A stretch of DNA of 64,000 bases from Thermoproteota archaeon (lineage in GTDB: Archaea; Korarchaeota; JAOZGF01; JAOZFZ01), in NCBI GenBank assembly GCA_027492035.1, contig JAOZFT010000035.1, forward strand, positions 85,923 to 149,922. Direction: 5' to 3'. This document shows, piece after piece, positions 4,029 to 48,202 of the stretch. Both the position numbers and the translations under genes were made by a program. The stretch's first letter is position 1; the number at the start of each line of letters is the position of its first letter. The notes under the pieces were generated by a model, which did not search any database, was not told the DNA's origin, and saw nothing but the letters and a program-made list of their open reading frames with translations.

Positions 4029-4270
4029 AAATCTTTATAAAACCGTCACTTTAATCCATAAACTTTATCCATTATTTATTGGGAAAATTTTGGAGAAAGA
4101 GGAGCTGGATCTTTCTAAATCATTTCAAATGTTCCTTTAAAGTTTCTACCCTCTTCTGTTGTTTGAAACAACTTTCTCTCTTAAAAAAGGAAATAATTTT
4201 ATAAAAAATAAAGGGACATTTCTCTCTTTACTTCCTTTACAAAACAACACTTCTGTAGAGGTGTCTCTTT

Positions 4271-5281
4271 TTGAAATTTTATAAAAACATGCTTGAACTT
4301 GTTGGTAATACTCCTATCATTAAGCTTCAAAAGATAACTAAAAAAGTAGACGCTAATATTTATGTTAAATGTGAATATTTCAACCCTAGTGGAAGCATAA
4401 AGGACAGGATAGCACTTAAAATGGTTGAAGAAGCTGAAAAAGAAGGTGAATTGAAAAAGGGAGGCGTAATTGTTGAAGTAACAAGCGGAAACACAGGGCC
4501 AGCACTGGCTTTTGTAGGGGCCGTTAAAGGATATAAAGTCCATATTTTCATCCCTTCACAATGGACAGGAACCTACAACCCGGAAGACAGAGTAAAAACG
4601 ATGAAAATATATGGTGCAAAAGTAACCCCTTTCCTAACTGAAAAATATGAAGAAATCTTCCAAGGCTTATCTGAAAACGAAGCAGCAGCAGCAACAATAG
4701 CTGTAGGATTGAAGGAATGCTATGAATTCGAAAAAAGAAATAATTTGGTGTGGTGGCCGAATCAACTCTGTAACAGAAACAATGTTTTAGCTCATAAAGA
4801 ATCAACAGGTAAAGAAATAATTGAACAACTTAACGGAGAAATTGATGCTTGGGTTGCTTCTGTAGGCACAGGCGGAACCTTACTTGGGGTGGCTGAGGCA
4901 TTAAAGGAAGAAATAGGAAACGTAAAAACAGTGGCTGTTGAACCTGAAGATGCAAGAGTTACAGAATGGGCTGAGAAAAAATTAATGAGTAAATTCATGA
5001 AACAACTTAATCTTCCACAAAGGAAATCAATAATGGAAATAGCTTTAGAAAAGGGGGTACCTGACAAGGTAATAAGAGTCAGTCATGAAGAAGCAAGAAA
5101 AATGGCTAACAAACTATGTAAAGAAGAAGGATTATTCTGTGGCATATCTTCCGGAGCAAATGTTTATGCAGCCTTGAAAGCAGCTAAGGAAATAGGTGAA
5201 GGAGCAAATATTGTAACTGTTCTAGTGGACAGCAGAGACAGGTACTTTCCTGAGTACCCAAACGAACAGTACACCATCTAA
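4271..5281 (+). CDS. PLP-dependent cysteine synthase / cystathionine beta-synthase family protein (divergent)
   Basis: GNTP, NPSGSIKDR (PLP lysine), TSGNTG, GTGGT and GISSGAN motifs. Confidence 0.85.
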   Translation: MKFYKNMLELVGNTPIIKLQKITKKVDANIYVKCEYFNPSGSIKDRIALKMVEEAEKEGELKKGGVIVEVTSGNTGPALAFVGAVKGYKVHIFIPSQWTGTYNPEDRVKTMKIYGAKVTPFLTEKYEEIFQGLSENEAAAATIAVGLKECYEFEKRNNLVWWPNQLCNRNNVLAHKESTGKEIIEQLNGEIDAWVASVGTGGTLLGVAEALKEEIGNVKTVAVEPEDARVTEWAEKKLMSKFMKQLNLPQRKSIMEIALEKGVPDKVIRVSHEEARKMANKLCKEEGLFCGISSGANVYAALKAAKEIGEGANIVTVLVDSRDRYFPEYPNEQYTI

Positions 5282-5613
5282 AACCTTATCCTTACAAAGT
5301 AATGCTCCAGATTTCTTTTCAGCAATTACTTCCTAAAAGAAATAAATCTAACCCTCTCCATTACTGAACTTGAAGGATAGAAGTCAATTCAAGCTACGAC
5401 TGAAAATCTTTACTATGCGCATTTTTAAAAAATAAAGCTGTCTTTCAGAAACTTAACAGGTTCCCATACTCAATATACTTAATGAATAATTGACAGGTAA
5501 TAGAGTCTGAAACAAAGAAAAGCAAAATTAAAAAATTTATCCCCCTTAATCTTTACGTAGAAAAAGTGAAAAATTCCTTTCTTTAAAGATTTATTAAAGG
5601 TTAAGGAAAAAGG

Positions 5614-7014
5614 TTGAAAACGGAGAAAGTAGAAATGAGTTTAGACCAAGAAATTATTTCTTCCTTTAAAAAACTTGGTTTAACAGAGTATGAAGCCAAG
5701 ACTTACTTAACTTTAGTTAAGAAAGCAGAAGCTTCTCCTTTAGAGATAACATTAGCTTCTAAAGTTCCTCAACCTAAAGTTTATACTTCCCTCAACTCTT
5801 TAGCAGCAAAAGGGTTAGTTGAAGTGGTTAGTGAGAGACCTAGAAAATGTAAAGCTGTAAACATAAGAGAAGCTGTCAGGAGGCTTTTTGAAAAAAAAAT
5901 AACTGAACTAGGTGAAAACGCCAAAAAAATAATTGAGAAAACAATTAAGGAGGAGTTAGAGGGAAAAATTCAGCCTCATGAAATATATAACTTAATAGGG
6001 GAGGCTGAAACAAAAAAGAAATTGATAGATATGCTATCCCTTGCAGAAAAAGAAGTTTTATTAGCAACTAAAAACTTAGAAATTCTTAGGTTTAAGAAAA
6101 TAAAGGATGTGCTTTCCAAGTTAGCAATGAAAGGGGTGGAATTTAAGGTTTTGGTTGAGTTCGACTCTTTAGATACAGAAACCCTTCTTTTTCTAAAAAA
6201 TTTTGGGACAAGAGTGGTTGATGTGTTGGAGGAACAGTCCCTTGTCACAGTTGATGGAAAGATAGCAATTACTACTTCGGTAATCGAAACTGGAATAGGG
6301 CCTTCGGTTTGGTTCTCAACCTTTACAACCTGTACTGAATGCGTAAAGGCTTATGTGCAGAAACTCAACTCTGCATGGCTTAAAGGTTCTAAACTTCCTC
6401 AAGAAACAAGGAATAAAGGAGTAAAAATAGCAGCTATAGTGCTTGCAGCAGGGAAACCAAGTTCAGAAAACAAAAACGTACTTCTTTATCCTTGGAGGAA
6501 CAAACCAGTAATTTGTCACGTAATAGAAGCATTAATGTTTTCTGATGTCGACGAAATAGTGGTAGTAACAGGTTATCAATCCAAAAAAATACAGAAGGTA
6601 ATAAATGAAAGATTTAGCAATGTTTCATTTGTTCATAATAAAAACTACGGTGAAGGGATGCTTTCCTCTTTTAAGAAGGGACTTGAAAAAGTTAAAGAGT
6701 CAGATGCTGTTCTTCTAATGCTTGGAGACCAACCCTTCATTGAACCATCAATAATAAACGAAATGATAAAGGAATTTAAACGAAATAAAGAAAAGAAAAA
6801 AGTCATAAACCCAGTGTTCAAAGGAAAAAGAGGACATCCTGTGCTTATCTCTTCCCATTTATATAAAGAAATACTGGGCACAAACAATAAGAAAACTGTA
6901 AGGGAAGTTTTAAACCAATACAAGGAGTCCACAGTACTAATTGAAGGGAAAGATTGGGTTTTAATGGATGTAAACACAATTAAAGACTTAGAAAAAGCCG
7001 AAAAAATAATTTAA
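5614..7014 (+). CDS. TrmB-family transcription regulator fused to a MocA/MobA-like NTP-transferase domain
   Basis: N-terminal LGLTEYEAKTY...VPQPKVYTSLNSLAAKGLV (TrmB wHTH); C-terminal AAIVLAAG, NYGEGMLSSFKKG, LGDQP, KRGHPV, DVNTIKD (MocA-like). Confidence 0.85.
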   Translation: MKTEKVEMSLDQEIISSFKKLGLTEYEAKTYLTLVKKAEASPLEITLASKVPQPKVYTSLNSLAAKGLVEVVSERPRKCKAVNIREAVRRLFEKKITELGENAKKIIEKTIKEELEGKIQPHEIYNLIGEAETKKKLIDMLSLAEKEVLLATKNLEILRFKKIKDVLSKLAMKGVEFKVLVEFDSLDTETLLFLKNFGTRVVDVLEEQSLVTVDGKIAITTSVIETGIGPSVWFSTFTTCTECVKAYVQKLNSAWLKGSKLPQETRNKGVKIAAIVLAAGKPSSENKNVLLYPWRNKPVICHVIEALMFSDVDEIVVVTGYQSKKIQKVINERFSNVSFVHNKNYGEGMLSSFKKGLEKVKESDAVLLMLGDQPFIEPSIINEMIKEFKRNKEKKKVINPVFKGKRGHPVLISSHLYKEILGTNNKKTVREVLNQYKESTVLIEGKDWVLMDVNTIKDLEKAEKII

Positions 7015-24048: not shown

Positions 24049-25122
24049 GTGCTACCTTTCAACAGTTTAAAAAATTTAAAGGAAGTAGGAATGACCACCC
24101 TTATTCTACTTGCAGGTGGTGAAAGCAAAAGGTTCCATGAACCTAATAAACCTAAAATTGACAAAGCCCTGCTTAAAGTAGGAAATAAAAGGTTTTTAGA
24201 GAGAATAATTGAAAATGTAGGCCGGGAAGTTGAAGAGATTATTGTGACGGTTAATACTGAAGAGAGGAAGAGACTATATGAAAAGGTTTTATGGCACTTA
24301 AGCAGCAAATTTGAAATCAAAATTTTGAAAGATGCGAAATCTCAAATTAAAGGCCCGTTAAACGGAATAAGGACAGGTCTAGAGTATTCTGAAGGGTCGC
24401 TATGTTTAACTCTGCCTGTTGATGTACCCTTTATTAAACCTGAAGTTGTGAGGGAAATCTTAAAGGAAGCTGTTAAATGGGAAACCACAACACTAATTTG
24501 GCCAAATGGGGGCATTGAACCCTTAATAGCGACTTATAAAAGGGAATATGCTGTGAAAGCATCTAAAATACTTTTATCTTTCAAAAGGTCAAGACCTGAC
24601 GACTTAGTAAGGGCTGCGTCTGACACCTTCTTTTTAAACGTAAATGCTTTGAGGAAGTTTGATCCAGAACTAGAAAGTTTCAGAAACATAAATTCACTTA
24701 AAGACTTGATTAAGAAGGATGGAAGGAAATGGCAGGAAGGGGAACTAAAGAATTCGGTACTTATAAAAGCTGAAGAAAAAATTTTCCATGGGAGCCACTT
24801 GTTTAACAAGGAGGAACTAATTCTTTTAAACAACACTTTCTTCCCAGGTGAGAGAAAAAGAAACTTTTTCTGGGTTGGTTTAATTTCAAACTTTTTTGGT
24901 GAAAAAACCAAAAAGAGGGAAGTTGCAGAAGAATTTTTAAAAGAAGCTTATGAAGCATTTACTAAAGAAAGAATGCTCTATATAAATAAAAAAGTGTATT
25001 TTCTAGCTTTCCACTCAGGAATTGATGCGTCAAAGTGCTACATGAAAATTTTTCGGGGAGAAAAGAATAAAGAATTAGAGAGGGAAATAAGTTTTTTTGC
25101 AAGCAAATTCAAAAACATTTGA
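24049..25122 (+). CDS. mobA: Molybdenum cofactor guanylyltransferase MobA with C-terminal extension
   Basis: LAGGESKRF, DKAL, GPLNGI, PVDVPF, EPL and FRNINS motifs; ATG at MTTLILLAGG is the likelier start. Confidence 0.78.
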   Translation: MLPFNSLKNLKEVGMTTLILLAGGESKRFHEPNKPKIDKALLKVGNKRFLERIIENVGREVEEIIVTVNTEERKRLYEKVLWHLSSKFEIKILKDAKSQIKGPLNGIRTGLEYSEGSLCLTLPVDVPFIKPEVVREILKEAVKWETTTLIWPNGGIEPLIATYKREYAVKASKILLSFKRSRPDDLVRAASDTFFLNVNALRKFDPELESFRNINSLKDLIKKDGRKWQEGELKNSVLIKAEEKIFHGSHLFNKEELILLNNTFFPGERKRNFFWVGLISNFFGEKTKKREVAEEFLKEAYEAFTKERMLYINKKVYFLAFHSGIDASKCYMKIFRGEKNKELEREISFFASKFKNI

Positions 25123-28338: not shown

Positions 28339-30090
28339 TTGAAGAGCCAAAAAAAACTTTTAAATCATTTACATTTCTTTAAAATATCACGGAACTACTT
28401 AAAAAGATTTGAAGTAAGTCTACTGATCCTAGCGGCTTTAACAGGTATTGGAGGAGGATTTGGAGCAGTTATTTTCCGTTTACTCATTACAGGCTTTACA
28501 ACCCTTTCATTTCAACATGGCAGTAAAATACTGAACTTTCTAGGAAATTATTACATCATCTTTATTCCTGCAATAGGTGGTATGGTTGTAGGATTCCTTG
28601 TAAATCGTTTCGCAAGAGAAACTAAAGGACATGGGGTACCAGAAGTAATGGAATCCATCATGTTGAAAGGTGGAAAAATAAGGCCAAGGGTTGCAATAAT
28701 AAAGTCCCTTGCCTCCTCTATTTGTATAGGTTCTGGTGGTTCCGTAGGCAGGGAAGGGCCAATTGTACAAATAGGTTCAGCGATAGGTTCAACGCTGGGT
28801 CAAATATTTAAGTTAGGTGAGGAGCAAGTGAGGAACCTAGTTGCCTGTGGGGCTGCTGCTGGAATTGCAGCAACTTTTAATGCACCAATTGGGGGTGTGC
28901 TTTTCGCCTCAGAGGTAATACTTGGTGAATTTGCTACTACAACCTTTATAACTATCGTGATTTCCTCAGTAAGTGCAACCATTATTTCAAGGATATTTCT
29001 AGGAAACAAAGTTTCTTTCCTTATTCCAGCTTATTCTTTTGTAAACCCTATTGAAATACTTTTTTATGTGATATTAGGTGTTTTAGCAGCTTTTATAGGT
29101 CTGTTATTCACTAAATTACTATATAAAGTTGAAGATGGTTTTAATTTGTTGAAAATATCGGACTACCTGAAACCAGTCATTGGTGGGTTAACAATCGGTA
29201 TCATAGGTTTCTTCTTTCCACAAATTTTCGGTGTAGGTTATGAAACAATAGAACTTGCCCTTGCAGAAAAACTTGCTTTAGGCACAGTAATCTCACTCAT
29301 GTTTCTCAAATTATTAGCTACTTCAATCACTCTTGGATCAGGTGGTTCAGGCGGAATATTTGCACCCTCTTTGGTTATAGGTTCAATGCTTGGCAACTTC
29401 TTCGGCACCTTCATCCACTCTGCATTTCCGGAAATAACTGCGTCTCCAGGGGCGTATGCACTGGTTAGTATGGCTGCTCTTTTTTCAGCAGCTGCTCATG
29501 CCCCCATAACAGCTATAATAATTCTGTTTGAAATGACAGGGGATTACAAAATTATTTTGCCTTTGATGGCAACCTGTGTAATTGCAACCCTAATAACTAG
29601 AAGAATGTCAGAAGGAAACATTTACACTTTGAAACTTATAAGGAGAGGAATCCATATATTAGATGGAATGAGTCTTAAAGTGAGGAAAACTTTAACAGCT
29701 TTCAAAATAAAAGATATAATGACAAAAGATGTGGTCTCAGTAACACCCAACTTATCTCTTGAAAGAATTTACAGCTTAATCTTGAAAACCGACCACCATG
29801 GTTTCCCAGTTATTGAAAATGGTAAATTAGTTGGCCTAATTACAGTTCATGACCTTGTAAAGGTTCCTAAGGAGAAATGGGGAAAAATGAAAGTAAAGGA
29901 CGCTATGGTTAAACATGTTGAAACAATCTCAACTGAAAATTCACTTTATGACGCAATACGTTTAACGACGAAGAAAGGGGTTGGTAGATTAATTGTTGTT
30001 TCTAAGGATGACCCTAACAAAGTGGTAGGCATAATAACTAAAACAGACTTGGTGAAGGCTTATAATACAGCTCTTCTAGTTACATACTGA
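28339..30090 (+). CDS. CLC chloride channel/transporter with CBS pair
   Basis: GHGVP, GSVGREGP, FNAPIGG, GSGGIFAP; C-terminal CBS domains. Confidence 0.93.
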   Translation: MKSQKKLLNHLHFFKISRNYLKRFEVSLLILAALTGIGGGFGAVIFRLLITGFTTLSFQHGSKILNFLGNYYIIFIPAIGGMVVGFLVNRFARETKGHGVPEVMESIMLKGGKIRPRVAIIKSLASSICIGSGGSVGREGPIVQIGSAIGSTLGQIFKLGEEQVRNLVACGAAAGIAATFNAPIGGVLFASEVILGEFATTTFITIVISSVSATIISRIFLGNKVSFLIPAYSFVNPIEILFYVILGVLAAFIGLLFTKLLYKVEDGFNLLKISDYLKPVIGGLTIGIIGFFFPQIFGVGYETIELALAEKLALGTVISLMFLKLLATSITLGSGGSGGIFAPSLVIGSMLGNFFGTFIHSAFPEITASPGAYALVSMAALFSAAAHAPITAIIILFEMTGDYKIILPLMATCVIATLITRRMSEGNIYTLKLIRRGIHILDGMSLKVRKTLTAFKIKDIMTKDVVSVTPNLSLERIYSLILKTDHHGFPVIENGKLVGLITVHDLVKVPKEKWGKMKVKDAMVKHVETISTENSLYDAIRLTTKKGVGRLIVVSKDDPNKVVGIITKTDLVKAYNTALLVTY

Positions 30091-30350: not shown

Positions 30351-32129
30351 GTGAAGAAGGTTCTCTCAACAAATAAACTTTTGGTTTTAAGTATTTTAAC
30401 AGGTTTAGTGTCAGGATTGGGGGCACTTCTTTTCTTTTATATGCTTCATTTTTTTTCAAGCTACTTTATAGGTTACCTGGCAGGTTTTAAAGTTCCAAGT
30501 CCAGGTGGTGAAACTTCACCCTTTCACATCAATGGTGAAACAACCTATAAACCCTGGCTTCTTGTTATTTTACCAGCAATTGGTGGACTACTTTCTGGGG
30601 TAATAGTTTACTCCTTTGCACCTGAAGCTGAGGGACATGGAACCGACGCAGTTATTGAATCCTTCCATAAATTCTCTGGTTACATTAGGAGTAGAGTACC
30701 TGTAATTAAATTGATTGCTTCTGCGTTGACTATAGGTACAGGTGGAAGTGCAGGCAGGGAAGGACCTATTGCCCAAATAGGAGCTGGTTTTGCTTCATTT
30801 ATCTCAAACTTTTTGAAATTAACAGCTAGAGAAAGGGAAATCCTAGTTGTTTGTGGAGCTGCTTCCGGAATAGGTAGTATATTTAGAGCTCCCTTCGGCG
30901 GGTCCATTTTCGGCATAGAAGTGCTCTACAAAAGAGACTACGAGGTTGATGCCTTTATCTACTCAGTTATTTCTTGTTTTGCAGGTTATGGCGTGTTTGC
31001 TTCGGTTGTAGGTTGGAAACCTATTTTTATAACCCCCTTCTACACTTTCTCACCTAAAGAATTACCTCTTTTCGCTTTGTTGGGGATAATAAGTGGTGTA
31101 ATAGCAATTATTTATGTCTCAGTTTTTTACGGGCTTAGGGATAAATTCTTTAGAAAAATGAAGATCCCGAATCATTTTAAACCAGCTATAGGTGGTATAA
31201 TGCTTGGTTTACTCGGGTTCTTCTTCCCTCAAGCAATAGGGACAGGCTATGGATGGATGCAGCTTGCAATTAACGGTGAATTAGGGCTAAGTCTTATGCT
31301 AGGGCTTATTTTCGCTAAAATTTTCGCTACTTCCTTCACCATTAGTTCAGGTGGAAGCGGTGGGGTTTACGCTCCTTCTCTTACAATAGGCGCCATGGTT
31401 GGTGGCTCTATCGGAATGCTCCTTAAACAGGCATTTCCAGCCATTATAACTAACCCAGGAGTTTTTACATTAATAGGTATGGCTTCATTCTTTTCAGCAG
31501 CAGCTAAATGTCCAATTTCACCAATCATTATGGTTTCTGAAATGACTGGAGACTACAATGTTTTAGTTCCAGCTATTTTAGCTTCAACAATCTCTTACTT
31601 CTCTTCAGGTGAATACACCATATACGAAAAACAAGTAATTTCCAAGACACACTCCCCTGCCCACACAGACAGGATCATAAGTGAACTTGGGAGAAGAGCA
31701 TATAAAGTAACTGACAAAATAAAAAAGGCATTGATAGCTTTCAAAGTTAAAGATGTAATGACTAAGAAAGTATTTTCTGTGAACCCTGACTCCACAGTGG
31801 AAGAATTATATGACTTAATTTTAAAAACTGATCATCACGGTTTCCCTGTGATTAAAAACAATAAACTTATAGGTTTAGTTACTATTCATGAACTCAGATC
31901 ATTTCCAAAAGAGAAATGGAAAGAATTGAAAGTGGAAAATGTTATGGTTAAACATGTTAAAACTATTTCGGCTGAAGAACCAATTTACGATGCAATAGTG
32001 AAAATGGCAAGGGAAGGGGTTGGTAGATTAATTGTTGTTTCTAAGGATGACCCTAAAAAAGTGGTAGGCATAATAACCAAAACAGATTTAATGAAAGCAT
32101 ACAATACAGCTCTTCTTGTTTCCATTTAA
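30351..32129 (+). CDS. CLC chloride channel/transporter with CBS pair (second paralog)
   Basis: GHGTD, GSAGREGP, FRAPFGG, GSGGVYAP; CBS domains. Confidence 0.93.
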   Translation: MKKVLSTNKLLVLSILTGLVSGLGALLFFYMLHFFSSYFIGYLAGFKVPSPGGETSPFHINGETTYKPWLLVILPAIGGLLSGVIVYSFAPEAEGHGTDAVIESFHKFSGYIRSRVPVIKLIASALTIGTGGSAGREGPIAQIGAGFASFISNFLKLTAREREILVVCGAASGIGSIFRAPFGGSIFGIEVLYKRDYEVDAFIYSVISCFAGYGVFASVVGWKPIFITPFYTFSPKELPLFALLGIISGVIAIIYVSVFYGLRDKFFRKMKIPNHFKPAIGGIMLGLLGFFFPQAIGTGYGWMQLAINGELGLSLMLGLIFAKIFATSFTISSGGSGGVYAPSLTIGAMVGGSIGMLLKQAFPAIITNPGVFTLIGMASFFSAAAKCPISPIIMVSEMTGDYNVLVPAILASTISYFSSGEYTIYEKQVISKTHSPAHTDRIISELGRRAYKVTDKIKKALIAFKVKDVMTKKVFSVNPDSTVEELYDLILKTDHHGFPVIKNNKLIGLVTIHELRSFPKEKWKELKVENVMVKHVKTISAEEPIYDAIVKMAREGVGRLIVVSKDDPKKVVGIITKTDLMKAYNTALLVSI

Positions 32130-32216: not shown

Positions 32217-33332
32217 TTACAACCCGAGTGGAGAAGGAAGCTGTTTTCCGAATTTAAACCATATGTAACAAGTTCCCTCCGTTGAAACCATGCATGGACC
32301 CACTGGGTTCCTTGGTGTGCATTTACGTTTGAAAAGATGGCATTGTGTAGGATAAGCCTTCCCAAGCACCACTTTATCACATATACATCCTTTAGGCATA
32401 GAAGTCTTTTTTATTTCTTTTTTGATCGAGTATTTTACCCTCGCATCCCTGTAACTGTACCTCTCCTTAATCTTGAACCCTGAAGAAGGAATTCTTCCTA
32501 TACCCCTCCATATAGTTTCTGTTACTTCAAAAGCGTTCTTAATTATTTCTTTAGCTTTAATGTTTCCCTCTCTCTCCACACTTCTCTTGTACTCATTTTC
32601 AAGTTTAGCTTCTCCTTCACTTACTTGATTAACAATCATAAGAATCGCTAATAAAACATCTACCGGTTCAAAACCGGCAACCACAACAGATACACCGTAT
32701 TCGCTGACGAAATTCCAAGGTTCAAACCCTATTACAGTTGACACATGGCCTGGAGCTATTATTCCTCTTATTTCAACGTCTCCGCTTTCCAACAAATACT
32801 TCATCACCGGGGGAGTTAAACGTAAAGAAGTGAGGATGCTGAAGTTCTCCTCTTTGGCTTTAATTATTTCATATGCAACAGCTGGAGCTGTGGTTTCAAA
32901 CCCCACAGCAAAGAAGACCACTTCCTTATCTGGGTTTTTCTCAGCTAGTTTCAAAGCGTCGTGTGGACTATAAACTACTTTCACATCAAAACCTTCACTT
33001 TTAACTTCCCATAAACTTTTATTTAATGCAGGAACCCTAACCATGTCGCCGAAAGTAGTTAAAATAATGTTTTCGTTTTCGGCTAACTGAATTGCTTCTT
33101 CAACATCTTCAATAGCTGCTACGCAAACTGGACACCCTGGACCTGCTACAAGTTCAATGTTTTCAGGCATAAGAGACCTTAAACCAAAATAACTAATCGT
33201 GTATTCATGGGTACCGCAGAAATGCATTATTTTTGTTTTTTCAAGGGTTTGAGCTTTAGCAGTGATCATTTTCGCTATCCTTAATGCTAAGGCTCTGTTC
33301 CTGTATCCCTGTAAGAAATTGTTCCACAACAA
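32217..33332 (-). CDS. hypD: Hydrogenase maturation protein HypD
   Basis: CGTH, GPGCPVC, GFETT, PGHVS and GPCMVSTEGTC motifs. Confidence 0.95.
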   Translation of the reverse strand: MLWNNFLQGYRNRALALRIAKMITAKAQTLEKTKIMHFCGTHEYTISYFGLRSLMPENIELVAGPGCPVCVAAIEDVEEAIQLAENENIILTTFGDMVRVPALNKSLWEVKSEGFDVKVVYSPHDALKLAEKNPDKEVVFFAVGFETTAPAVAYEIIKAKEENFSILTSLRLTPPVMKYLLESGDVEIRGIIAPGHVSTVIGFEPWNFVSEYGVSVVVAGFEPVDVLLAILMIVNQVSEGEAKLENEYKRSVEREGNIKAKEIIKNAFEVTETIWRGIGRIPSSGFKIKERYSYRDARVKYSIKKEIKKTSMPKGCICDKVVLGKAYPTQCHLFKRKCTPRNPVGPCMVSTEGTCYIWFKFGKQLPSPLGL

Positions 33333-37410: not shown

Positions 37411-38097
37411 GTGGCCTCTTTGCAAAAAAATAAAATATTGAAGGTTGATGAGGGAGAAATACTTGACATTGAAATTGAAGAAGATTTACTGAAAGCTAAC
37501 AAAGAACTTGCATCTGTTAACAGAAAAACCTTTGACTTAAATAACATTAAATCAGTAAACGTTATGGGGGCAATAGGCTCAGGGAAAACAAGCATCATCC
37601 AATGGCTCATAAAAGAACTGAAAAACAAGTATAAAATAGCAGTAATAGCAGGTGACGTAACAACAGGTATAGATGCTGAAAGAATTAAAGAAGCAGGAGC
37701 GGAATCTATACAAATCAACACAGGAAGAGGTTGCCACCTAGACGCCTTAATGATTAGGAAAGCAATCAAAAAATTAAACCTCAAAGAAATAAACCTCCTC
37801 TTTATAGAAAACGTTGGAAACCTAATCTGCCCCGCCGACTTCCCACTAGGAACCCACCTAAACATGGTGGTTGTAAGCGTCACAGAAGGGCCTTATATGA
37901 TCATCAAACACCCCTTCATAATCAAGGAAGCCGATATAGTTGTAATAAATAAAATAGACTTAGCTGACCAAATGGAAGTAAATGTGAACAAACTAGTTAA
38001 GGATGTGGGAAGAATTAACTCTTCAGCTAAAGTAGTTACAACTTCTGTAAAGGAAGGAATTGGTTTAAATGGTTTAATTGAAGCTTTAAAACTCTAA
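37411..38097 (+). CDS. hypB: Hydrogenase nickel-insertion GTPase HypB
   Basis: GSGKT, GCHLDA, ENVGNLICP and NKID motifs. Confidence 0.95.
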   Translation: MASLQKNKILKVDEGEILDIEIEEDLLKANKELASVNRKTFDLNNIKSVNVMGAIGSGKTSIIQWLIKELKNKYKIAVIAGDVTTGIDAERIKEAGAESIQINTGRGCHLDALMIRKAIKKLNLKEINLLFIENVGNLICPADFPLGTHLNMVVVSVTEGPYMIIKHPFIIKEADIVVINKIDLADQMEVNVNKLVKDVGRINSSAKVVTTSVKEGIGLNGLIEALKL

Positions 38098-38766: not shown

Positions 38767-39750
38767 GTGAAGCTGGGAATGAGCGAAATAAAAATCGAGA
38801 AAATTAATGCTATTTGGTTGCAGGGACAGGGGTGTACCGGCTGTACAGTTTCTTTAACTGGTGCTACACATCCAAGTCTACCTGATCTATTGACAGGGTT
38901 TCTTCCGCAGGCAGCAGGTGTCGCTTTAGTTTTTCACCCAACCATTATGCTTCCCCATGGTGAAGAAGCCATAAATGTGTTAGAATCCGGATTAAAGGGG
39001 AAATTAGACCCTTTCGTCTTAATACTTGAGGGAGCAATACCGAATGAAGAATTAGCTGAGAAAACAGGTGGTTACTGGTGTATGGTGGGAGAAAATGGTG
39101 AAGGGAAACCTTTAACTCTCAATTACTGGGTGGACAAACTGTCTGAAAGGGCAGCTGCGGTTGTGGCAGTGGGTACCTGTGCCTGCTATGGAGGAATCCC
39201 TCATGGAAAACCTAACCCAACAGGTTCAAAGGGTCTTTTAAGTTACTTAGGCAGAAACTGGCGAAGCAAATTGAACCTTCCAGTGATCTGTATCCCCGGG
39301 TGTCCAGCTCAAGGAGAACATGTAGCTGAGGTGTTAGCTCATCTTGTCCTTACAGCTAGAGGATTTCTTCCAATTCCTGAACTTGATGAATTCCACAGGC
39401 CCAAATTCATATTTAAGGCAACTGCTCATGAAAACTGTCCTAGGGCTGGGTTCTTTGCTGAAGGAAAGTATTCTGAGGAATTTGGCGAACCTTATTGCAT
39501 GGGACTACTAGGATGTAAAGGACCCATAGTTCACTGTGACGTGCCTAAGAGAGGTTTCGTTGAAGGTGTGGGTGGATGTACAACTGTGGGATCCATATGT
39601 ATTGGATGTACTGAGCCTGAATTTCCAGATGAACCATTGTCCCCGTTCTTTAAAAAAGCTCCTCCTGGAGTTTTTGTCTCTGAAACATTTGGAGATATCA
39701 AGGGTAAACTTTATGCTTTACTTCACAGATTAAAGTCGAGGAAGATATAA
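38767..39750 (+). CDS. [NiFe]-hydrogenase small subunit (group 1 type, no Tat signal)
   Basis: WLQGQGCTGC, GTCACYGG, PGCP, HENCPR, GCKGP and CIGCTEP Fe-S motifs. Confidence 0.93.
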   Translation: MKLGMSEIKIEKINAIWLQGQGCTGCTVSLTGATHPSLPDLLTGFLPQAAGVALVFHPTIMLPHGEEAINVLESGLKGKLDPFVLILEGAIPNEELAEKTGGYWCMVGENGEGKPLTLNYWVDKLSERAAAVVAVGTCACYGGIPHGKPNPTGSKGLLSYLGRNWRSKLNLPVICIPGCPAQGEHVAEVLAHLVLTARGFLPIPELDEFHRPKFIFKATAHENCPRAGFFAEGKYSEEFGEPYCMGLLGCKGPIVHCDVPKRGFVEGVGGCTTVGSICIGCTEPEFPDEPLSPFFKKAPPGVFVSETFGDIKGKLYALLHRLKSRKI

Positions 39751-39765
39751 AAGGAGGATATAGAA

Positions 39766-41514
39766 ATGGTTGAGGAAAAAATGAAAAATGAAGTACTTAT
39801 CGAGCCCCTTACAAGGATAGAGGGACACTTAGCTATACATGCTGTTCCTGATCTAGAAACGAAAAAATACAAAAATGCTCACAGTTACGCGGTAATGTTT
39901 AGGGGGTTCGAGATAATTTTGAAGAATAGAGAACCTGCCGACGCTATATGGATAACTCAAAGGATTTGTGGGGTTTGCCCTGTCCCGCACGCTGTAGCAT
40001 CTGTAGAAACTGTAGATATGACGTACAAAGCCCCCCCAACTCCTTTCAGCATCGCTGTGAGGAACTTTGTCCATTTGTCTGAACAGCTTTATGACTCGCC
40101 ATTGGGATGCGGAATACTTGAGGGCCCGGATTACTCCGAACCAGTAGTTAAAAGGTTTAATCCTGAATGGTGGAGTTCTGCACAAGAAACAAAAGCTGAA
40201 CATTCAGATTTACATGGATACTCCACAATTGCAGACATAATGACTGCTCTAACTCCATTATCAGGCTCTTTATGGCTAAAATGTTTACAGATATCAAAAC
40301 TAGGTAGGAAAATGGCTTCCCTTTTCGGGGCTAAGCATCCTCATGTAGGCACTTTTGTTCCTGGCGGTGTAGGGAAAACTATCACAGCTACAGACCTAGA
40401 AATGTTTGCAGGTATGCTTTCCCAACACATAGCCTTTTCTAAAGAATTTGTTCCAGCCTTTGACGACCTACTAAATTTCCTAATAGGTATTGGTTACGAA
40501 GAAGCAGGTGCGAGGGCAGCTAACTTAATAAGCTACGGAAGCTATGAAGACCCTCATTCTTACAACGCCAAATATGAAGACATGTCTAAATGGGGAGAAA
40601 AGAGGAAAGTGACACCTGGTGTAGTAGTAAACAGAAACTTAATAACTACAGACTTGGTTGAAATAAACGTAGGCATAAGAGAATTCATCACTCATTCTTA
40701 CTACAATGAATGGGATGGAAGAGAAGTAGAGAGAGATCCCTTAGGCAATGAAATAGCTGCAGAGCATCCTTGGAACAAAGAAACAATACCTAGGCCAGAG
40801 CCCTCTAAACAATGGAACGGGAAGTACTCTTGGGGTACAGCCCCCAGGTGGCATGATTGGAAAAAACATATTGATGGAGGAATATATACTTTGGAAGCAG
40901 GGCCTATAGCAAGGATGTGGACAACTGCCCAAGCTAGGAAAGTTCCTGAATCTACAGGGAACAGTTTAAAATTTACTCTCCCCAAAGTCACTGTTGTAAC
41001 TGGTAAAGTTGCTGAAGAAATGACTTTCGAATGGAAAATTCCTGAGAAGGTGAATGCCATAGAAAGAATAAGAGCTAGAGCATATTATCATGCCTACAGT
41101 GCATACGTGGCTTACAACATGTTAATTGAAGCTTTGGAAATGGTTAAAAAGGGAGAAATTGAGATGTGGAATAAGTACAGGAGACCAAGGGAAGGAATAG
41201 GTGTAGGAATGATAGAAGCCATGAGAGGAGGTGTAGCCCACTGGTGCATAATGAAAAACGGAAGAATTCACAGGTATCAAATCATAACTCCAACAGCTTG
41301 GAATGAATCTCCTAGGGGACCAAACAATGAGCCTGGACCTTATGAAGAAGCAATTATAGGTACTCCAATAACAGAAGCTATAAGTTCAAGCCTTAACGGC
41401 ATAGATGCGGCAAGAGTTGTAAGAAGCTTCGATCCATGTCTAGCCTGCACAGTCCATGTTTACAATGGGAAAAAGAAAACAGTAAATGAAATTTCTCCAT
41501 ACTTCAACCTCTAA
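39766..41514 (+). CDS. [NiFe]-hydrogenase large subunit
   Basis: TRIEGH, L1 QRICGVCPVPH, L2 SFDPCLACTVH followed by a cleavable C-terminal extension. Confidence 0.95.
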   Translation: MVEEKMKNEVLIEPLTRIEGHLAIHAVPDLETKKYKNAHSYAVMFRGFEIILKNREPADAIWITQRICGVCPVPHAVASVETVDMTYKAPPTPFSIAVRNFVHLSEQLYDSPLGCGILEGPDYSEPVVKRFNPEWWSSAQETKAEHSDLHGYSTIADIMTALTPLSGSLWLKCLQISKLGRKMASLFGAKHPHVGTFVPGGVGKTITATDLEMFAGMLSQHIAFSKEFVPAFDDLLNFLIGIGYEEAGARAANLISYGSYEDPHSYNAKYEDMSKWGEKRKVTPGVVVNRNLITTDLVEINVGIREFITHSYYNEWDGREVERDPLGNEIAAEHPWNKETIPRPEPSKQWNGKYSWGTAPRWHDWKKHIDGGIYTLEAGPIARMWTTAQARKVPESTGNSLKFTLPKVTVVTGKVAEEMTFEWKIPEKVNAIERIRARAYYHAYSAYVAYNMLIEALEMVKKGEIEMWNKYRRPREGIGVGMIEAMRGGVAHWCIMKNGRIHRYQIITPTAWNESPRGPNNEPGPYEEAIIGTPITEAISSSLNGIDAARVVRSFDPCLACTVHVYNGKKKTVNEISPYFNL

Positions 41515-41984
41515 AACTCCCTTCTTACTTTTTCCGATATAATCCCTACAACTTTATTAACTGCTTCTCTAACTTTTGAGGAAAGCCCTACCCCAAACGA
41601 TAAGTCACCAGGTTGGCATCCTATCAAAAAAACTTTTTTAGGAGATTTCTCTAACGCTTTACTAAGCCTTAAAATTTCTTTCGGCCTAAGTTCATGGAAG
41701 CTCACAGTGATCATTTCAAAAAGGTCAGACTGACTAGCTTTCTCAGGTTTTACTTCTGAAATAAATATTTCACCTGGGGTTCCACCAAAATCCACAGCGT
41801 CAACAATTACTACTTCATCGAAATCCCCTATGTCATACAAAAGATCTAAACTGCTTGTTCCATATTCCCTAATTACTACATGTTTCGGAAACTCAATTTT
41901 AGATAATTGGTTCACTACTTCGCATCCGAAACCGTCATCTCTCCTTAGTTTATCTCCTACTCCAGCTATTAATACTCTCTCCAT
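41511..41984 (-). CDS. Hydrogenase maturation endopeptidase (HybD/HycI family)
   Basis: GVGD.LRRDDGFG, IVDAVD, SFHE, GCQP; start moved to the ATG at 41984 (MERVLIAG). Confidence 0.9.
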   Translation of the reverse strand: MERVLIAGVGDKLRRDDGFGCEVVNQLSKIEFPKHVVIREYGTSSLDLLYDIGDFDEVVIVDAVDFGGTPGEIFISEVKPEKASQSDLFEMITVSFHELRPKEILRLSKALEKSPKKVFLIGCQPGDLSFGVGLSSKVREAVNKVVGIISEKVRREF

Positions 41985-42172
41985 GATTTTTCCTCGCTCC
42001 AAATTTCTCTTCAAAATAAGCTTTGAGTATAGAAAAAGGAAAATCAAAGAATTCAAAAACTTTCTTAAAACCTTTTTGTTGGCAAATTTTATGCTTAAAG
42101 TTTTTCTGTGCCTTACAATCTTCAACTTGATAAAACCTTTTTTAAAGAGAAACGTAAGAAAAGCCTTGATTC

Positions 42173-43141: not shown

Positions 43142-43567
43142 CTAAGGTGGTAGCATCACTGTTGTTTCTGTTTTCTTTAGCCCTCGCATCTTCAAATCTT
43201 TATACAATTTAACTAGTTTCTCCAGATCCTTAGTTGAGTAAAGTATTTTTCCCTCCTCCAGTGCATCTACTATCAATGGGTTTCCCTTCTTCAACATTTC
43301 CAAAGCCTCACATAACCTATATGGATGGGGCTCGATATTTATTGGTACATTACCTATTATCTCCAGTACCTTCTTTATTCTATCCAAGTATTTCTCTTTG
43401 AAATCAGATATTATCAATAGGTCGTAGTCGCTCCATGGAATCCAGTCTCCTCTTGCCCTTGAACCAAAAAGTATTACAGCCTTTACACGGAACATCTCAA
43501 CTAAATATTTTACAACGTTTCTTAGCCAGTCATTTTCATTATTCATAGGACACCTTTCCCCTAACAT
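43142..43567 (-). CDS. Minimal nucleotidyltransferase (MNT) antitoxin
   Basis: LFGSRARGD...SDYDLLII; overlaps the HEPN gene. Confidence 0.9.
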   Translation of the reverse strand: MLGERCPMNNENDWLRNVVKYLVEMFRVKAVILFGSRARGDWIPWSDYDLLIISDFKEKYLDRIKKVLEIIGNVPINIEPHPYRLCEALEMLKKGNPLIVDALEEGKILYSTKDLEKLVKLYKDLKMRGLKKTETTVMLPP

Positions 43568-43928
43568 AATCTATTATCTTCTTCGCTGCTTCTAATGCAT
43601 TCATAGATGTCTTCTCGTCATAGGCTTGGTGTGGAGTTCCTGAAGGATGAACATTTGGATATCTTGACGGTATATAGTGTCTATCTAGTTCTCTAGCATA
43701 ACTTAATAACTCCTGATTTACATCTAAGGCTCTTCCCCTAAAATATCTCTCGAACAGTACTCTAACACTGTGACCCCATGGCGCCTCATTGACATGGTAT
43801 AATAATGCCTTAACAGCCTTCTCAGCTGATTGATGAGCATAGAATGCAGCAGCATTATATCTCTTCTCACGATGAAGAATCATAGCTGTTTCATAATCCC
43901 ATAAAGCTTCATCCAGCCATCTAATCAC
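43539..43928 (-). CDS. HEPN domain protein
   Basis: HQSAEKAVKA, GHSV and LDRHYIPSRYP motifs. Confidence 0.9.
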   Translation of the reverse strand: MIRWLDEALWDYETAMILHREKRYNAAAFYAHQSAEKAVKALLYHVNEAPWGHSVRVLFERYFRGRALDVNQELLSYARELDRHYIPSRYPNVHPSGTPHQAYDEKTSMNALEAAKKIIDYVRGKVSYE

Positions 43929-45661: not shown

Positions 45662-48202
45662 GTGTTTTGCATGTTTAAACTGCATAATTTAACAAGTAAG
45701 GAAGTATTCTTTTTCGCAATTGCCTCAACTCTTTTGTTAATTCAAGTAATGTCTCCTGCGTCACCCACCCCAAATGATGAACCTTTCAAATTGACTCTAA
45801 GGGTAGAAAACGAAGTAATACCTAGGCCATCCACCCAAAATTTCTTTGTGGTATTAATAAATAATAACGTAAGGAGACATGTTGAATTGTTTGTTTCTTT
45901 GGTGAAAAGAGGGGAAGTTCTTGAACAGAAAAGTTACACAGTTTTTTTAGACCCTAAGGAAATAGTTAATTTAACAGATTCTTTAACTTTCAAGCCATCC
46001 CTGAAACCTGGGATTTACCTTTTGCTTGTCCAAACTTTTATAGATAATTCTCAAATCAATGTCTCGCAACCAGTATTTGTTTTTCCCTCCCTCAAAGAAA
46101 TATACGTTCTCTTTCAGAAATATGTTGAAATTAAAACTTTCTCTGAAGAAGCTGAAACACTTTCAAATAAAGGATTAATAAAAACAAATTTCTCGAGGTT
46201 AATCAACGAAACCAATTTCTTAATAAATAGTTGCCTTAAACTTCGCCACGAAAAAAAATTTGTTGAAGCCACTAAAGCTTATGAAAAAGCTGAAATTAAC
46301 ATGAATTTGCTTAATAAAGAGAAAATAAAAATGGAAAGAAGCTTATTCATTTATAAACTGCTCAGTTCCATAGAAGACTCCTTAAGTTTCGACGCTAAAA
46401 TAATTTTTGGCTTTTGGTGGAATTTCATAGTGGGTTCACTGTTTGTTTTCATAATTTTCCTTATTGTTTTCCCGATCTACACTTCAAGCCCTATTTTGTG
46501 GATTGAAAACTTTAAAGTTCTCTTTCCACATTCTCCAGCAACTGAAACAGAGAAAACCATATTGTATCTTAAAAACGAGTTAGGTAAAAGGATTGATTTA
46601 TTATTGTCTCAAGCCTTTGAAACAATAAAAATGGATATTAGAATACTTTTCTTAACAGCTGTAGCAGGTATCATAGCTGCAATAGGTTTATTAACCAATA
46701 ACGTAGCTGTTCTTATAGGGTCTATGCTTATCTCCCCCATCATGGTTATTGCAGTGGCAGACACTTATGGATGGATCTTGTCAGGTAAAAAAACAGCTAA
46801 GGGAATAACTGGGGAATATGTTTTTAGAAAAGGGTTTTCAAATGAACTTAAAGGAGTGTTAGCAGCTGTACTTAGTTCTTACCTAGTAGTTTCTTTCTTG
46901 AGTTTCTTTATGTCCATAACTCCTTCTTCTCTGCTTATGTCACGTGCAGCCCCTAATTTCAGCGATTTAGCAATAGCTATAGGTGCAGGCTTTGCAGGGG
47001 CAGTAGCACTTGCAGGCCGTAGAAAAGAAATAAGTTTGTTAGTTGGGTCAGCAATAGCTATAGCCTTGATTCCTCCAGCTTCAGCCTTAGGTATAGGGTT
47101 AGCGATTCTAAGAGCAGATATTGCGTTTGGTGCTGCTTCTTTGTTAATAGTTAACCTTATCGCCATTAAATTTTCAAGTTACTTAACAGCAGCCATGTAT
47201 CTTTTATACCCCCTGTTTAAAGAAATATATTTTAAAGTTAGAGATTTCTGGCTTAAGGGTGACACTTATTCCTTAATGAGCTTAATAAAGAACTTGTTCA
47301 TTTATTGGGCCTGTGTAAGTTTAAGCGTCACTCCACCGTTTGGAAGAGAAGAAATTAAAGGTGCCTATTCATTTTTCAAAAAATTCCAGCCACTAATATG
47401 GAAAACTTTCAAAAAATTCGTAACTTTCATAATTACTCCCCTCTTCCTTATTTGGTTTTTCGGTTTAATAGTATCTACCCCAGTGTCTGCAGCACCTTCC
47501 CTACTCATCAGTTCCCTTGCAAAATTCCTTTCAAACTTATACTCAACTTTAACGCTTCAAGTTACACAAAATATTTTACTTGAACAAATCCTGAACATAC
47601 TAAAAACCTTAATTATCTATTTACTTCCCATCTTTCTTGTCTCCATAACCCTCGTTTACTCTCTTCGAATCCTTAAAAATAAAGAATTAAACAAAGGAAC
47701 ACTTCTGAAGTTTTCTGTTTCATCCTTTCTTCTCTGGCTTTTTTCAAGTTACCTCTTCAATTTTCAATTTTTCCCGAAAATTTTAACAATTTACACATTG
47801 TTTTTCTTACTAGGATGCTTAATTGTGGTGGAATGGAGAAAACTGAAAAAATACAGGTCCAGAATTATGCTCTACGGTTTCGTAGTTTTCTCCCTCATCT
47901 ACGTAACTTTCCAAAGTATCCAAGTTTACCAAACAAGTGTGTACGCAGTAAATGTCCCCCATATAAACACTGTTTCGAAGGAAGTAATAGCTGCTTACCT
48001 AAACTTACCAACCGAAAACCTGCTTGTCGACTCCTCCTTAAAAAAGGGGATTCTAAAAGTTGAAGCTGAAGTTAGGATGCCTCTTAAAAACATTTCAAAA
48101 TACCAGTTGAGCAAAACACAAATTGAACAATTAAACGAAATACTCACCTCAATCACGGGTTACCAAACAGAAGTAACCCTCAAATACATAATCTCCACTT
48201 AA
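45662..48202 (+). CDS. Large membrane protein with DUF389 (TIGR00341-like) core
   Basis: IAAIGLL.N..AVLIGSMLISP and AIAIALIPP motifs; signal peptide plus soluble N-terminal region; extra TM helices. Confidence 0.78.
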   Translation: MFCMFKLHNLTSKEVFFFAIASTLLLIQVMSPASPTPNDEPFKLTLRVENEVIPRPSTQNFFVVLINNNVRRHVELFVSLVKRGEVLEQKSYTVFLDPKEIVNLTDSLTFKPSLKPGIYLLLVQTFIDNSQINVSQPVFVFPSLKEIYVLFQKYVEIKTFSEEAETLSNKGLIKTNFSRLINETNFLINSCLKLRHEKKFVEATKAYEKAEINMNLLNKEKIKMERSLFIYKLLSSIEDSLSFDAKIIFGFWWNFIVGSLFVFIIFLIVFPIYTSSPILWIENFKVLFPHSPATETEKTILYLKNELGKRIDLLLSQAFETIKMDIRILFLTAVAGIIAAIGLLTNNVAVLIGSMLISPIMVIAVADTYGWILSGKKTAKGITGEYVFRKGFSNELKGVLAAVLSSYLVVSFLSFFMSITPSSLLMSRAAPNFSDLAIAIGAGFAGAVALAGRRKEISLLVGSAIAIALIPPASALGIGLAILRADIAFGAASLLIVNLIAIKFSSYLTAAMYLLYPLFKEIYFKVRDFWLKGDTYSLMSLIKNLFIYWACVSLSVTPPFGREEIKGAYSFFKKFQPLIWKTFKKFVTFIITPLFLIWFFGLIVSTPVSAAPSLLISSLAKFLSNLYSTLTLQVTQNILLEQILNILKTLIIYLLPIFLVSITLVYSLRILKNKELNKGTLLKFSVSSFLLWLFSSYLFNFQFFPKILTIYTLFFLLGCLIVVEWRKLKKYRSRIMLYGFVVFSLIYVTFQSIQVYQTSVYAVNVPHINTVSKEVIAAYLNLPTENLLVDSSLKKGILKVEAEVRMPLKNISKYQLSKTQIEQLNEILTSITGYQTEVTLKYIIST

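Follow-up and report, generated by a model that had tools for sequence, protein, structure and literature searches.

A probably cytoplasmic [NiFe]-hydrogenase from a Thermoproteota archaeon, in a widespread clade outside the named group 1 subgroups

We analyzed a 64,000-nucleotide stretch of DNA (here, the window) from a Thermoproteota archaeon (GTDB lineage Korarchaeota; JAOZGF01; JAOZFZ01; assembly GCA_027492035.1, contig JAOZFT010000035.1, positions 85,923 to 149,922 of the forward strand), in which two adjacent genes encode the small (S) and large (L) subunits of a [NiFe]-hydrogenase. Together these probably form an intact heterodimeric enzyme that faces the cytoplasm and belongs to a widespread clade, here called clade X, outside the named subgroups. 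The enzyme lies inside a supergroup made up of groups 1g, 1h, and 1l and their relatives, outside each named subgroup that was anchored in our trees, and it is not the sister of group 1h. A preliminary description had seen in it a possibly unclassified, soluble sister lineage of 1h, the group of high-affinity enzymes that oxidize atmospheric H2. The lineage does stand outside 1h and every other anchored subgroup, but an exclusive sisterhood with 1h was rejected.

38767-39750, + strand: [NiFe]-hydrogenase small subunit, 327 amino acids (aa) from GTG; PF01058 and PF14720
39766-41514, + strand: [NiFe]-hydrogenase large subunit, 582 aa; PF00374, E value 5.8e-74

Structure of the two subunits

All four Ni-Fe cysteines and the N-terminal TRIEGH glutamate (TRIEGH at 39811-39828) are kept in the large subunit, whose L1 motif reads RICGVCPVPH (39961-39990, aa 66 to 75) and whose L2 motif reads DPCLACTVH (41431-41457, aa 556 to 564). 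Past L2 runs an 18-residue C-terminal extension of the type cleaved by the neighboring endopeptidase after metal insertion. The large subunit thereby has the marks of group 1: an L1 of the form RxCGxCxxxH, an L2 of the form DPCxxCxxH, a PF00374 domain, and a C-terminal extension paired with a dedicated endopeptidase. FrhA (TIGR03295) is matched weakly in the N-terminal part, at 77.9 bits where the cut-off is 392.5, and the match covers only the shared motif region. No curated NCBIfam equivalog passed its cut-off for either subunit, which puts the pair outside every well-curated subtype.

The small subunit has the three-cluster architecture of group 1 (PF01058 plus PF14720). Its cluster motifs are GQGCTGC (aa 20 to 26; window 38824-38844), GTCAC (136 to 140), and PGCP (177 to 180), followed by HENC (221 to 224), YC..GC..C (243 to 257), and GGC..IC.GC (269 to 281). 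Every cluster-ligand position of the 1h enzyme of R. eutropha (HofKG, PDB entry 5AA5) is kept, except that an Asp of 5AA5 is Cys26 here; conservation was also seen across 21 orthologues. By this comparison, the proximal cluster has four Cys ligands, the distal cluster is ligated by His and three Cys, and the medial cluster has a fourth Cys and is therefore probably [4Fe-4S], as in 5AA5.

A twin-arginine translocation (Tat) signal peptide on the small subunit is typical of most group 1 subgroups. Here, 19 residues precede the first cluster motif (15 if translation starts at ATG 38779), and they contain no RRxF; E. coli HyaA and six of the seven small subunits of a neighboring clade (clade Y, described below) served as RRxFL controls. 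Judging from orthologues, ATG at 38779 (MSEIK...) is more likely to be the start than GTG. The highest hydrophobicity over 19 residues was 1.41, at an internal position, against 2.03 for the membrane anchor of E. coli HyaA used as a control. With neither export signal nor anchor on its small subunit, the enzyme is predicted to be located in the cytoplasm. The preliminary description had been right to report that both were missing.

Among solved structures, 5AA5 was the best match to the large subunit (444.6 bits; the next PDB chain scored 173.5) and to the small subunit (278.2 against 182.8 bits). An AlphaFold model (predicted local distance difference test 86.2, predicted template modeling score 0.90) superposed on 5AA5 with template modeling (TM) scores of 0.91/0.94 and a root mean square deviation (rmsd) of 1.8 Å, compared with TM scores of ~0.72/0.78 and an rmsd of at least 5.8 Å for the next entries; 5AA5 was probably in the AlphaFold training data, and the model may lean on it. 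The preliminary description had called the scaffold 1h-like on account of several segments, all of which we found in the two genes. In the large subunit, these are HGYSTIADIM (40213-40242), TTDLVEINVG (40645-40674), DPLGN..HPWNKETIP (40735-40791), and EWKIP..NAIERIRAR (41029-41079); in the small subunit, they are LDPFVLILEGAIPNE (39004-39048) and CDVPKRG..GGCTTVGSICIGC (39535-39609). The likeness to 5AA5 bears the 1h-like scaffold out, but the quoted segments occur also in 1l-type and 1g sequences and so mark the 1g/1h/1l supergroup as a whole rather than only 1h.

Phylogenetic placement

At an E value of ≤0.001, 2320 of 8000 scored candidates matched, and the best 119 besides the query were 58 to 74% identical. 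Large-subunit identity was 40 to 44% to 1h, 1l, and 1g versus 25 to 31% to other groups; for 1h it was 40 to 42%, and for the other plasmid-borne group 1 and group 2 enzymes it was ≤31%. After clustering at 50%, the representatives P0040 and P0122 were 61% and 52% identical to the window protein, P0123 (1l-type) was 44% identical, and P0124 (core 1h) was 40% identical. Since only 3 of 10 cluster representatives carried names (Hyperthermus, Pyrodictium, and a metagenome-assembled genome [MAG] of Thermococci), P0123 and P0124 were labeled by motif and by likeness to labeled sequences. The other anchors were C. acetobutylicum WP_010890826 for 1a; E. coli HybC for 1c; R. leguminosarum HupL and E. 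coli HyaB for 1d; P0129 (Hyperthermus butylicus WP_011822511) for 1g; four plasmid loci (R. eutropha pHG1, Methylocystis, Mycobacterium, and Streptomyces) for 1h; and, for group 2, the HupUV type of 2b and one further sequence. Fragments of <450 aa, P0134 (with a frame-shifted tail), and the degenerate paralogues P0125, P0131, and P0141 were excluded. These last three are full-length 1l-type relatives that lack the catalytic cysteines (e.g., SRTRGLSSGAH and no DPCxxC) and may be non-catalytic paralogues.

Two quick trees of the large subunit (81 and 69 rows) and a careful tree (49 rows and 574 columns; LG+C20+F+G4 by the posterior mean site frequency method; support given as ultrafast bootstrap/SH-aLRT) agreed on its placement. 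In the careful tree, the supergroup (99/98) split into (1g,(1l-type,1h)) on one side and a superclade of three clades, X, Y, and Z, on the other. Group 1h paired with the 1l-type sequences (98/92), and 1g joined them (99/92); the superclade was supported at 97/92, and X, Y, and Z were each supported at 100/100, with the window protein in X. The 1h branch was long (0.77; 100/100) and excluded the window protein. Group 2 anchors formed the outgroup in all three large-subunit trees, and the window protein did not fall among them. A superclade joined exclusively to 1h, a hypothesis fixed before any tree was built, was rejected by the approximately unbiased (AU) test (delta lnL of 14.2, p-AU of 0.0034), while the superclade as sister to 1h plus 1l with 1g outside, an alternative framed after the tree was seen, was not rejected (delta lnL of 4.9, p-AU of 0.097). 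A quick tree of small subunits was congruent (supergroup 97, X+Z 91) and left the order of the Korarchaeum-type 1g-like sequences, Y, 1h, and X+Z unresolved.

Group 1l (the type from Antarctic soil, which in the updated HydDB also includes members from halophiles and Sulfolobus) is the nearest labeled group. Its enzymes differ in having an N-terminal MCFKNLP extension, TRVAGA, CGVCGGVH, and DPCMPCTTH, none of which is present here, and published 1l operons carry genes for transmembrane proteins between S and L, whereas here 15 bases separate the two genes. Group 1g (the Isp type of Crenarchaeota) and the Korarchaeum-type 1g-like enzymes likewise share the supergroup and keep TRIEGH, and their partner families, NarI/Isp1-like and HdrD/Isp2-like, are found also at some clade-X loci. 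Their L1 motif differs: it reads CGVCGASH in named 1g large subunits and begins CGVCAAS in the Korarchaeum type, and the window enzyme has neither. The Korarchaeum type also has a Tat leader, a C-terminal anchor, and the gene order S-L-isp1-isp2, all missing from the window enzyme; the small-subunit features were read from the Korarchaeum-type loci L108 (5786-7039) and L109 (5205-6482), not from a named 1g enzyme. Of the two, only L108 was read as far as the proximal position; its small subunit has Asn there (SQDCAGN), in place of the canonical Cys and the Asp of 1h.

Two other readings tie the enzyme more closely to 1h. Like R. eutropha HofKG and M. smegmatis Hhy, it has a Tat-less small subunit and a C-terminal helical tail, and the fold and the positions of the three clusters, down to the fourth medial Cys, are the same. 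That its best solved relative is a 1h enzyme, and that sisterhood with 1h and 1l jointly was not rejected, would suit an unclassified, soluble, basal sister of 1h with a bearing on the origin of high-affinity atmospheric H2 oxidation, as the preliminary description had it. Against this, 1h pairs with 1l-type sequences and then with 1g while the superclade lies on the other side, the 1l-type representative is nearer (44%) than 1h (40%), and the relatives' hosts belong to anaerobe lineages; we consider this reading very unlikely, and any bearing of the enzyme on the origin of high-affinity H2 oxidation is speculation. A divergent member of 1h itself would agree with published labels. According to the accessible text of Vulcano et al. 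(2023; PMC10667645), HydDB assigned an enzyme of the Korarchaeia lineage Kg_8 (genus QMVU01) to "group 1h," and QMVU01 contigs carry 71 to 72% identical orthologues; PMC10469681 calls Kor-8 genes "1h/5"; the HydDB paper warns about distant 1h members. The four plasmid-borne 1h large subunits read TRIVGS, SRICGICGDNH, and DPCLPCGVH, just as the preliminary description had stated, whereas the corresponding motifs here are TRIEGH, CGVCPVPH, and DPCLACTVH, and the proximal motif is GCTGC in place of the GCDGD of 5AA5. The 1h gene cluster (S-L-NifU-like-DUF5947-DUF6084-hypothetical-protease, with DUF5947-DUF6084 after S-L in all four 1h loci fetched) is absent here: its accessory genes had no homologue in the genome of the window (tblastn, E ≤1e-3) and gave a single NifU-like match among 999 open reading frames (ORFs) of 70 related loci. 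Motif, synteny, and tree tests thus contradict membership in 1h, and we regard such membership as extremely unlikely; the anaerobic host and the separate clade are further differences from 1h.

Clade X, its proximal ligand, and its hosts

When one genome was scanned for each GTDB species, 368 relatives emerged. The best 80 were kept, and neighborhoods were taken from 70 loci, the window included, 54 of which belong to clade X. The closer relatives come from Korarchaeia-type Thermoproteota, Bathyarchaeia, Altiarchaeales, Heimdall- and Sifarchaeota, Methanocellales, Methanotrichaceae, and Dehalococcoidia; at 46 to 51% identity, hosts include Archaeoglobaceae, Thermoplasmata, Geoarchaeota, and Njordarchaeota, among others. 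All of these hosts are MAGs, and clade X is represented by MAGs alone (archaea plus Dehalococcoidia). The host lineages are known as anaerobes. The window enzyme shares the monophyly of clade X, its L1 motif QR[ITV]CGVCP.PH, its S-L-protease core, and its Tat-less small subunit of ~320 aa ending in R.I.

The proximal cluster is polymorphic within the clade. Its motif is GC.GC in 32 of the 51 readable clade-X small subunits and GC.GD in the other 19; elsewhere, Asp was found in all 7 clade-Y small subunits and Cys in all 8 readable clade-Z small subunits. On the 69-row tree, Cys/Asp changes numbered at least 5 within X (28 scored rows) and 7 overall (43 rows), and sister pairs with different ligands include L022 (Cys) with L023 (Asp) and L020 (Cys) with L024 (Asp). 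The preliminary description had contrasted a Cys here with an Asp in 1h, which is correct for this protein; the Asp, however, is not diagnostic of 1h, as had been supposed, nor is Cys a property of clade X. Lineages of strict anaerobes, Methanotrichaceae and Dehalococcoidia among them, often carry Asp. In the careful tree, bacterial Dehalococcoidia and archaeal Methanotrichaceae copies form one tight subclade (100/100; L052 to L054, L060 to L063, L067, L068, and L081 with L055 to L059), which implies recent interdomain transfer; its readable motifs all have Asp.

Clade-Y small subunits are 388 to 428 aa long with hydrophobic C-terminal anchors, and six of the seven carry a twin-arginine motif, the seventh ORF being cut at its 5′ end. 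Next to the cytoplasmic clades X and Z there is thus an exported sister. At the clade-Z loci L073 to L078, two small conserved ORFs of ~133 and ~77 aa without a Pfam family lie 3′ of L (in 6/9 and 5/9 clade-Z loci, respectively; e.g., L073:4408-4809 and L078:12132-12365) and are candidate extra subunits or chaperones. Many clade-X large subunits (P0041, P0047, P0049 to P0058, and others) end L2 in Gln (DPCLACC[VI]Q) rather than the usual His or Arg. Cleavage by the maturation protease is said to follow this final residue, which in the window protein is His. Selenocysteine as the cause of the missed L2 pattern in some members was rejected, since the motif ends in Gln and not His.

The clade is already in print, nameless or automatically labeled "1h." Leung et al. 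(2024; Nat Commun, PMC11018855) describe, in the accessible text, "previously undescribed group 1 clades" from unnamed archaeal lineages including Korarchaeia QMVU01, Bathyarchaeia TCS64, and Altiarchaeales, with which the window enzyme shares clade, L1 and L2 motifs, Tat-less small subunit, and S-L-protease core. Four of our loci (L030, L031, L035, and L043) are on contigs named as leaves in the tree file of their Fig. 3, and two more, L016 (72% identical) and L018 (71% identical), are in their Table S2, where the closest HydDB match is 42 to 43% identical and labeled 1l; across the orthologues in that table, nothing in HydDB is closer than 40.6 to 42.7%, from 1l or 1h. As far as the accessible parts of these sources go, the Altiarchaeales "group 1" NiFe hydrogenase that PMC8755723 discusses as an adaptation to H2 belongs to the same lineages, and PMC9894754 places hydrogenases of ANME-1 (anaerobic methanotrophic archaea) and Syntrophoarchaeia "next to" 1g and 1h and calls their function unclear; these neighbor the same lineages in the tree of Leung et al. 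and fall outside our sampling. In the accessible portions of PMC11018855, PMC8755723, and PMC9894754, we found no name, mechanism, ligand, or gene-context analysis for the clade. New here are the polymorphic proximal ligand, the sister clade with Tat leader and anchor, and the membrane modules that stand beside 13 of the 54 clade-X loci.

The genome of the window is 1.87 Mb in size and 93% complete. No further match to PF00374 at the family cut-off was found in it, the one weak match being a NuoD-like gene on contig C31. Neither a haem-copper oxidase nor cytochrome bd was found, which agrees with the apparently anaerobic archaeal host of the preliminary description, although in an incomplete genome failure to find oxidases does not prove their absence. 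The host is a sparsely sampled lineage of the TACK (Thaumarchaeota, Aigarchaeota, Crenarchaeota, and Korarchaeota) archaea: no other sequence in the database is more than 63% identical to its AtpA, and the named matches are "Thaumarchaeota" and Bathyarchaeota MAGs. Searches of one genome of the same family and one of the same order gave weak C-terminal large-subunit matches alone, while orthologues 69 to 73% identical occur in other families of the phylum, a distribution that points to horizontal acquisition of the hydrogenase gene set.

Gene neighborhood and candidate electron acceptor

The hydrogenase genes form a compact island with a complete hypABCDEF maturation set, and the endopeptidase gene is convergent with the large-subunit gene, their 3′ ends overlapping by 4 bases. 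The other genes of the island are as follows.

32217-33332, - strand: hypD; TIGR00075, 471 bits
33463-34494, + strand: hypE; TIGR02124, 398 bits
34528-36867, - strand: hypF carbamoyltransferase; TIGR00143, 817.9 bits
36916-37137, - strand: hypC chaperone
37411-38097, + strand: hypB nickel-insertion GTPase; TIGR00073, 250.9 bits
38111-38500, + strand: hypA nickel metallochaperone
41511-42125, - strand: maturation endopeptidase, HycI/HybD family; TIGR00072, 122 bits

No cytochrome b, ferredoxin, or Hdr- or Frh-type partner was detected in the 15 neighboring ORFs and 40 further ORFs of the window, and the preliminary description was borne out in reporting no adjacent cytochrome b gene. Two genes downstream of the island, an MntA-like nucleotidyltransferase and a HEPN-domain protein (43142-43928, - strand) have the usual arrangement of a type VII toxin-antitoxin pair. 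Tandem paralogous genes for CLC chloride channels with CBS domains (28339-30090 and 30351-32129, + strand) are the next genes upstream of the hyp set. Molybdenum-cofactor accessory genes (FdhD, MocA-like, and MobA-like) are scattered over the window (3234-7014 and 24049-25122), and no molybdoenzyme gene was detected among the window ORFs scanned. At 45662-48202 (+ strand), an 846-aa protein has as its sole recognized part a hydrophobic DUF389 domain (residues 355 to 502).

Over the 70 loci, the only widely conserved neighbors were S (69 loci), L (69), the protease (57), and hyp genes (hypF 29, hypE 28, hypD 27, and hypC 24); the protease gene adjoins the large-subunit gene at 45 of the 54 clade-X loci. 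Other genes recurring near the relatives encode UbiA, UbiE-type, geranylgeranyl-reductase, B12-radical-SAM, and ArsA proteins. At least three complex-I-like genes (from a NuoABCDHIJKLMN-like operon) flank 9 of the 54 clade-X loci, an HdrD/Isp2-like gene occurs at 4, and a NarI/Isp1-like gene occurs at 4, so that a membrane-type module of one kind or another stands beside 13. The arrangement varies: modules are upstream and divergent in Bathyarchaeia and downstream at L023 and L036, and a NarI-like gene lies between S and L at L039. Homology (E values of 1e-28 to 1e-47) links the HdrD-like protein to the Isp2-like protein whose gene lies downstream of S-L at Korarchaeum-type 1g-like loci.

In the genome of the window, contig C31 (L107:3571-16870) carries A-ATPase genes, an 11-subunit NuoABCDHIJKLMN-like operon without NuoEFG, an ArsA/Get3-like ATPase gene, a 257-aa ORF predicted to span the membrane several times, and a 437-aa HdrD-like CCG protein that is 36% identical (E value of 3e-98) to the hydrogenase-adjoining copy in Bathyarchaeia. 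The Ni-Fe cysteines are missing from the NuoD-like subunits in this genome and in nine relatives; the complex-I-like complex is thus not itself a hydrogenase, and a group 4g "Hfo" enzyme (PMC7886697) was rejected on the same ground. Because the candidate modules lie side by side on C31 and adjoin the hydrogenase in relatives, we tentatively propose that the acceptor may be a membrane module, either an HdrD/Isp2-like protein with a NarI/Isp1-like partner, the NuoEFG-less 11-subunit complex, or both, a possibility that falls somewhat short of an even chance. H2 would be oxidized in the cytoplasm: it would be split at the Ni-Fe site, and the electrons would pass from the proximal through the medial to the distal cluster and on to an acceptor encoded outside the operon. 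A complex predicted for the small subunit and the HdrD-like protein of this genome, with alignments supplied for each, scored 0.10 against a mark of 0.32; controls were not folded, and the score weighs neither way.

Two soluble roles compete with this proposal. The enzyme could reduce a soluble carrier (ferredoxin, F420, or an HdrABC/MvhD-type bifurcating complex), perhaps running in reverse as an H2-evolving fermentation valve. A cytoplasmic enzyme without a partner gene in its operon, a genome rich in CCG/Hdr-like proteins, and the 41 of 54 clade-X loci with no membrane-module neighbor all favor this, as do the weak FrhA match and the speculation on F420 reduction in the accessible text of PMC10667645. 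However, no FrhB, FrhG, or MvhD-like gene was found beside the hydrogenase in the window or as a recurring cluster among the 70 loci, the small subunit is of the three-cluster group 1 type (PF14720) and not of group 3, and the FrhA match reflects a shared N-terminal region; we judge this role unlikely. A regulatory H2 sensor like those of group 2b would also be cytoplasmic, Tat-less, and without a partner subunit in the operon. To our knowledge, 2b sensors have neither a C-terminal extension nor a dedicated protease, and the window enzyme has both; group 2 is the outgroup in every large-subunit tree, no kinase or regulator gene is adjacent, and a sensor role seems to us scarcely credible.

Several points nevertheless weigh against a cytoplasmic clade-X hydrogenase that feeds a membrane module. 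The link to the acceptor is one of guilt by association, and since the 13 loci come mostly from related Bathyarchaeia, they are not independent events. In the genome of the window, the candidate modules and the hydrogenase lie on separate contigs, no plausible redox partner was found among the ORFs scanned within the 64-kb window, and some 10 CCG-domain proteins are encoded. The 257-aa ORF on C31 weakly resembles the NarI-like family (21% identity, E value of 4e-6) and has no Pfam match. Whether the enzyme takes up or evolves H2 is not readable from sequence. Our labeled anchors (1a, 1c, 1d, 1g, 1h, 1l-type, and group 2) were without 1b, 1e, 1f, 1i, 1j, 1k, and 1m, which the HydDB comparison in the accessible Table S2 of Leung et al. 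covers indirectly. In the literature searched, setting aside what PDF supplements may hold, we found no work that names clade X, studies it biochemically, or analyzes its ligands.

A broader hypothesis would link these strands: clade X might be the missing H2-input module of NuoEFG-less complexes, HdrD-NarI complexes, or both, in a cytoplasmic energy-conserving chain from H2 to a membrane carrier, and 1h might have inherited its Asp-ligated proximal cluster, taken as a mark of these aerobic high-affinity enzymes, from such anaerobic ancestors rather than evolving it for O2 tolerance. Its basis for the latter part is the Asp in 7/7 clade-Y and 19/51 clade-X small subunits, and as a whole we hold it to be quite unlikely.

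By itself, the gene pair in the window adds little: another well-preserved clade member, with all of its maturation genes. Clade X, in turn, is common in uncultured anaerobes dominant in sediments, in hydrothermal systems, and in the deep subsurface, and metabolic reconstructions have given it inconsistent labels ("1h," "1h/5," "group 1," or "undescribed"). The natural Cys/Asp pairs (L022/L023 and L020/L024) let enzymologists probe the role of the proximal Asp. The aerobic scavenging of atmospheric H2 that a "1h" label implies is almost certainly wrong for clade-X hosts; models of H2 cycling built from genomes therefore gain from a correct placement, and "group 1h" assignments in anaerobic archaea call for caution.

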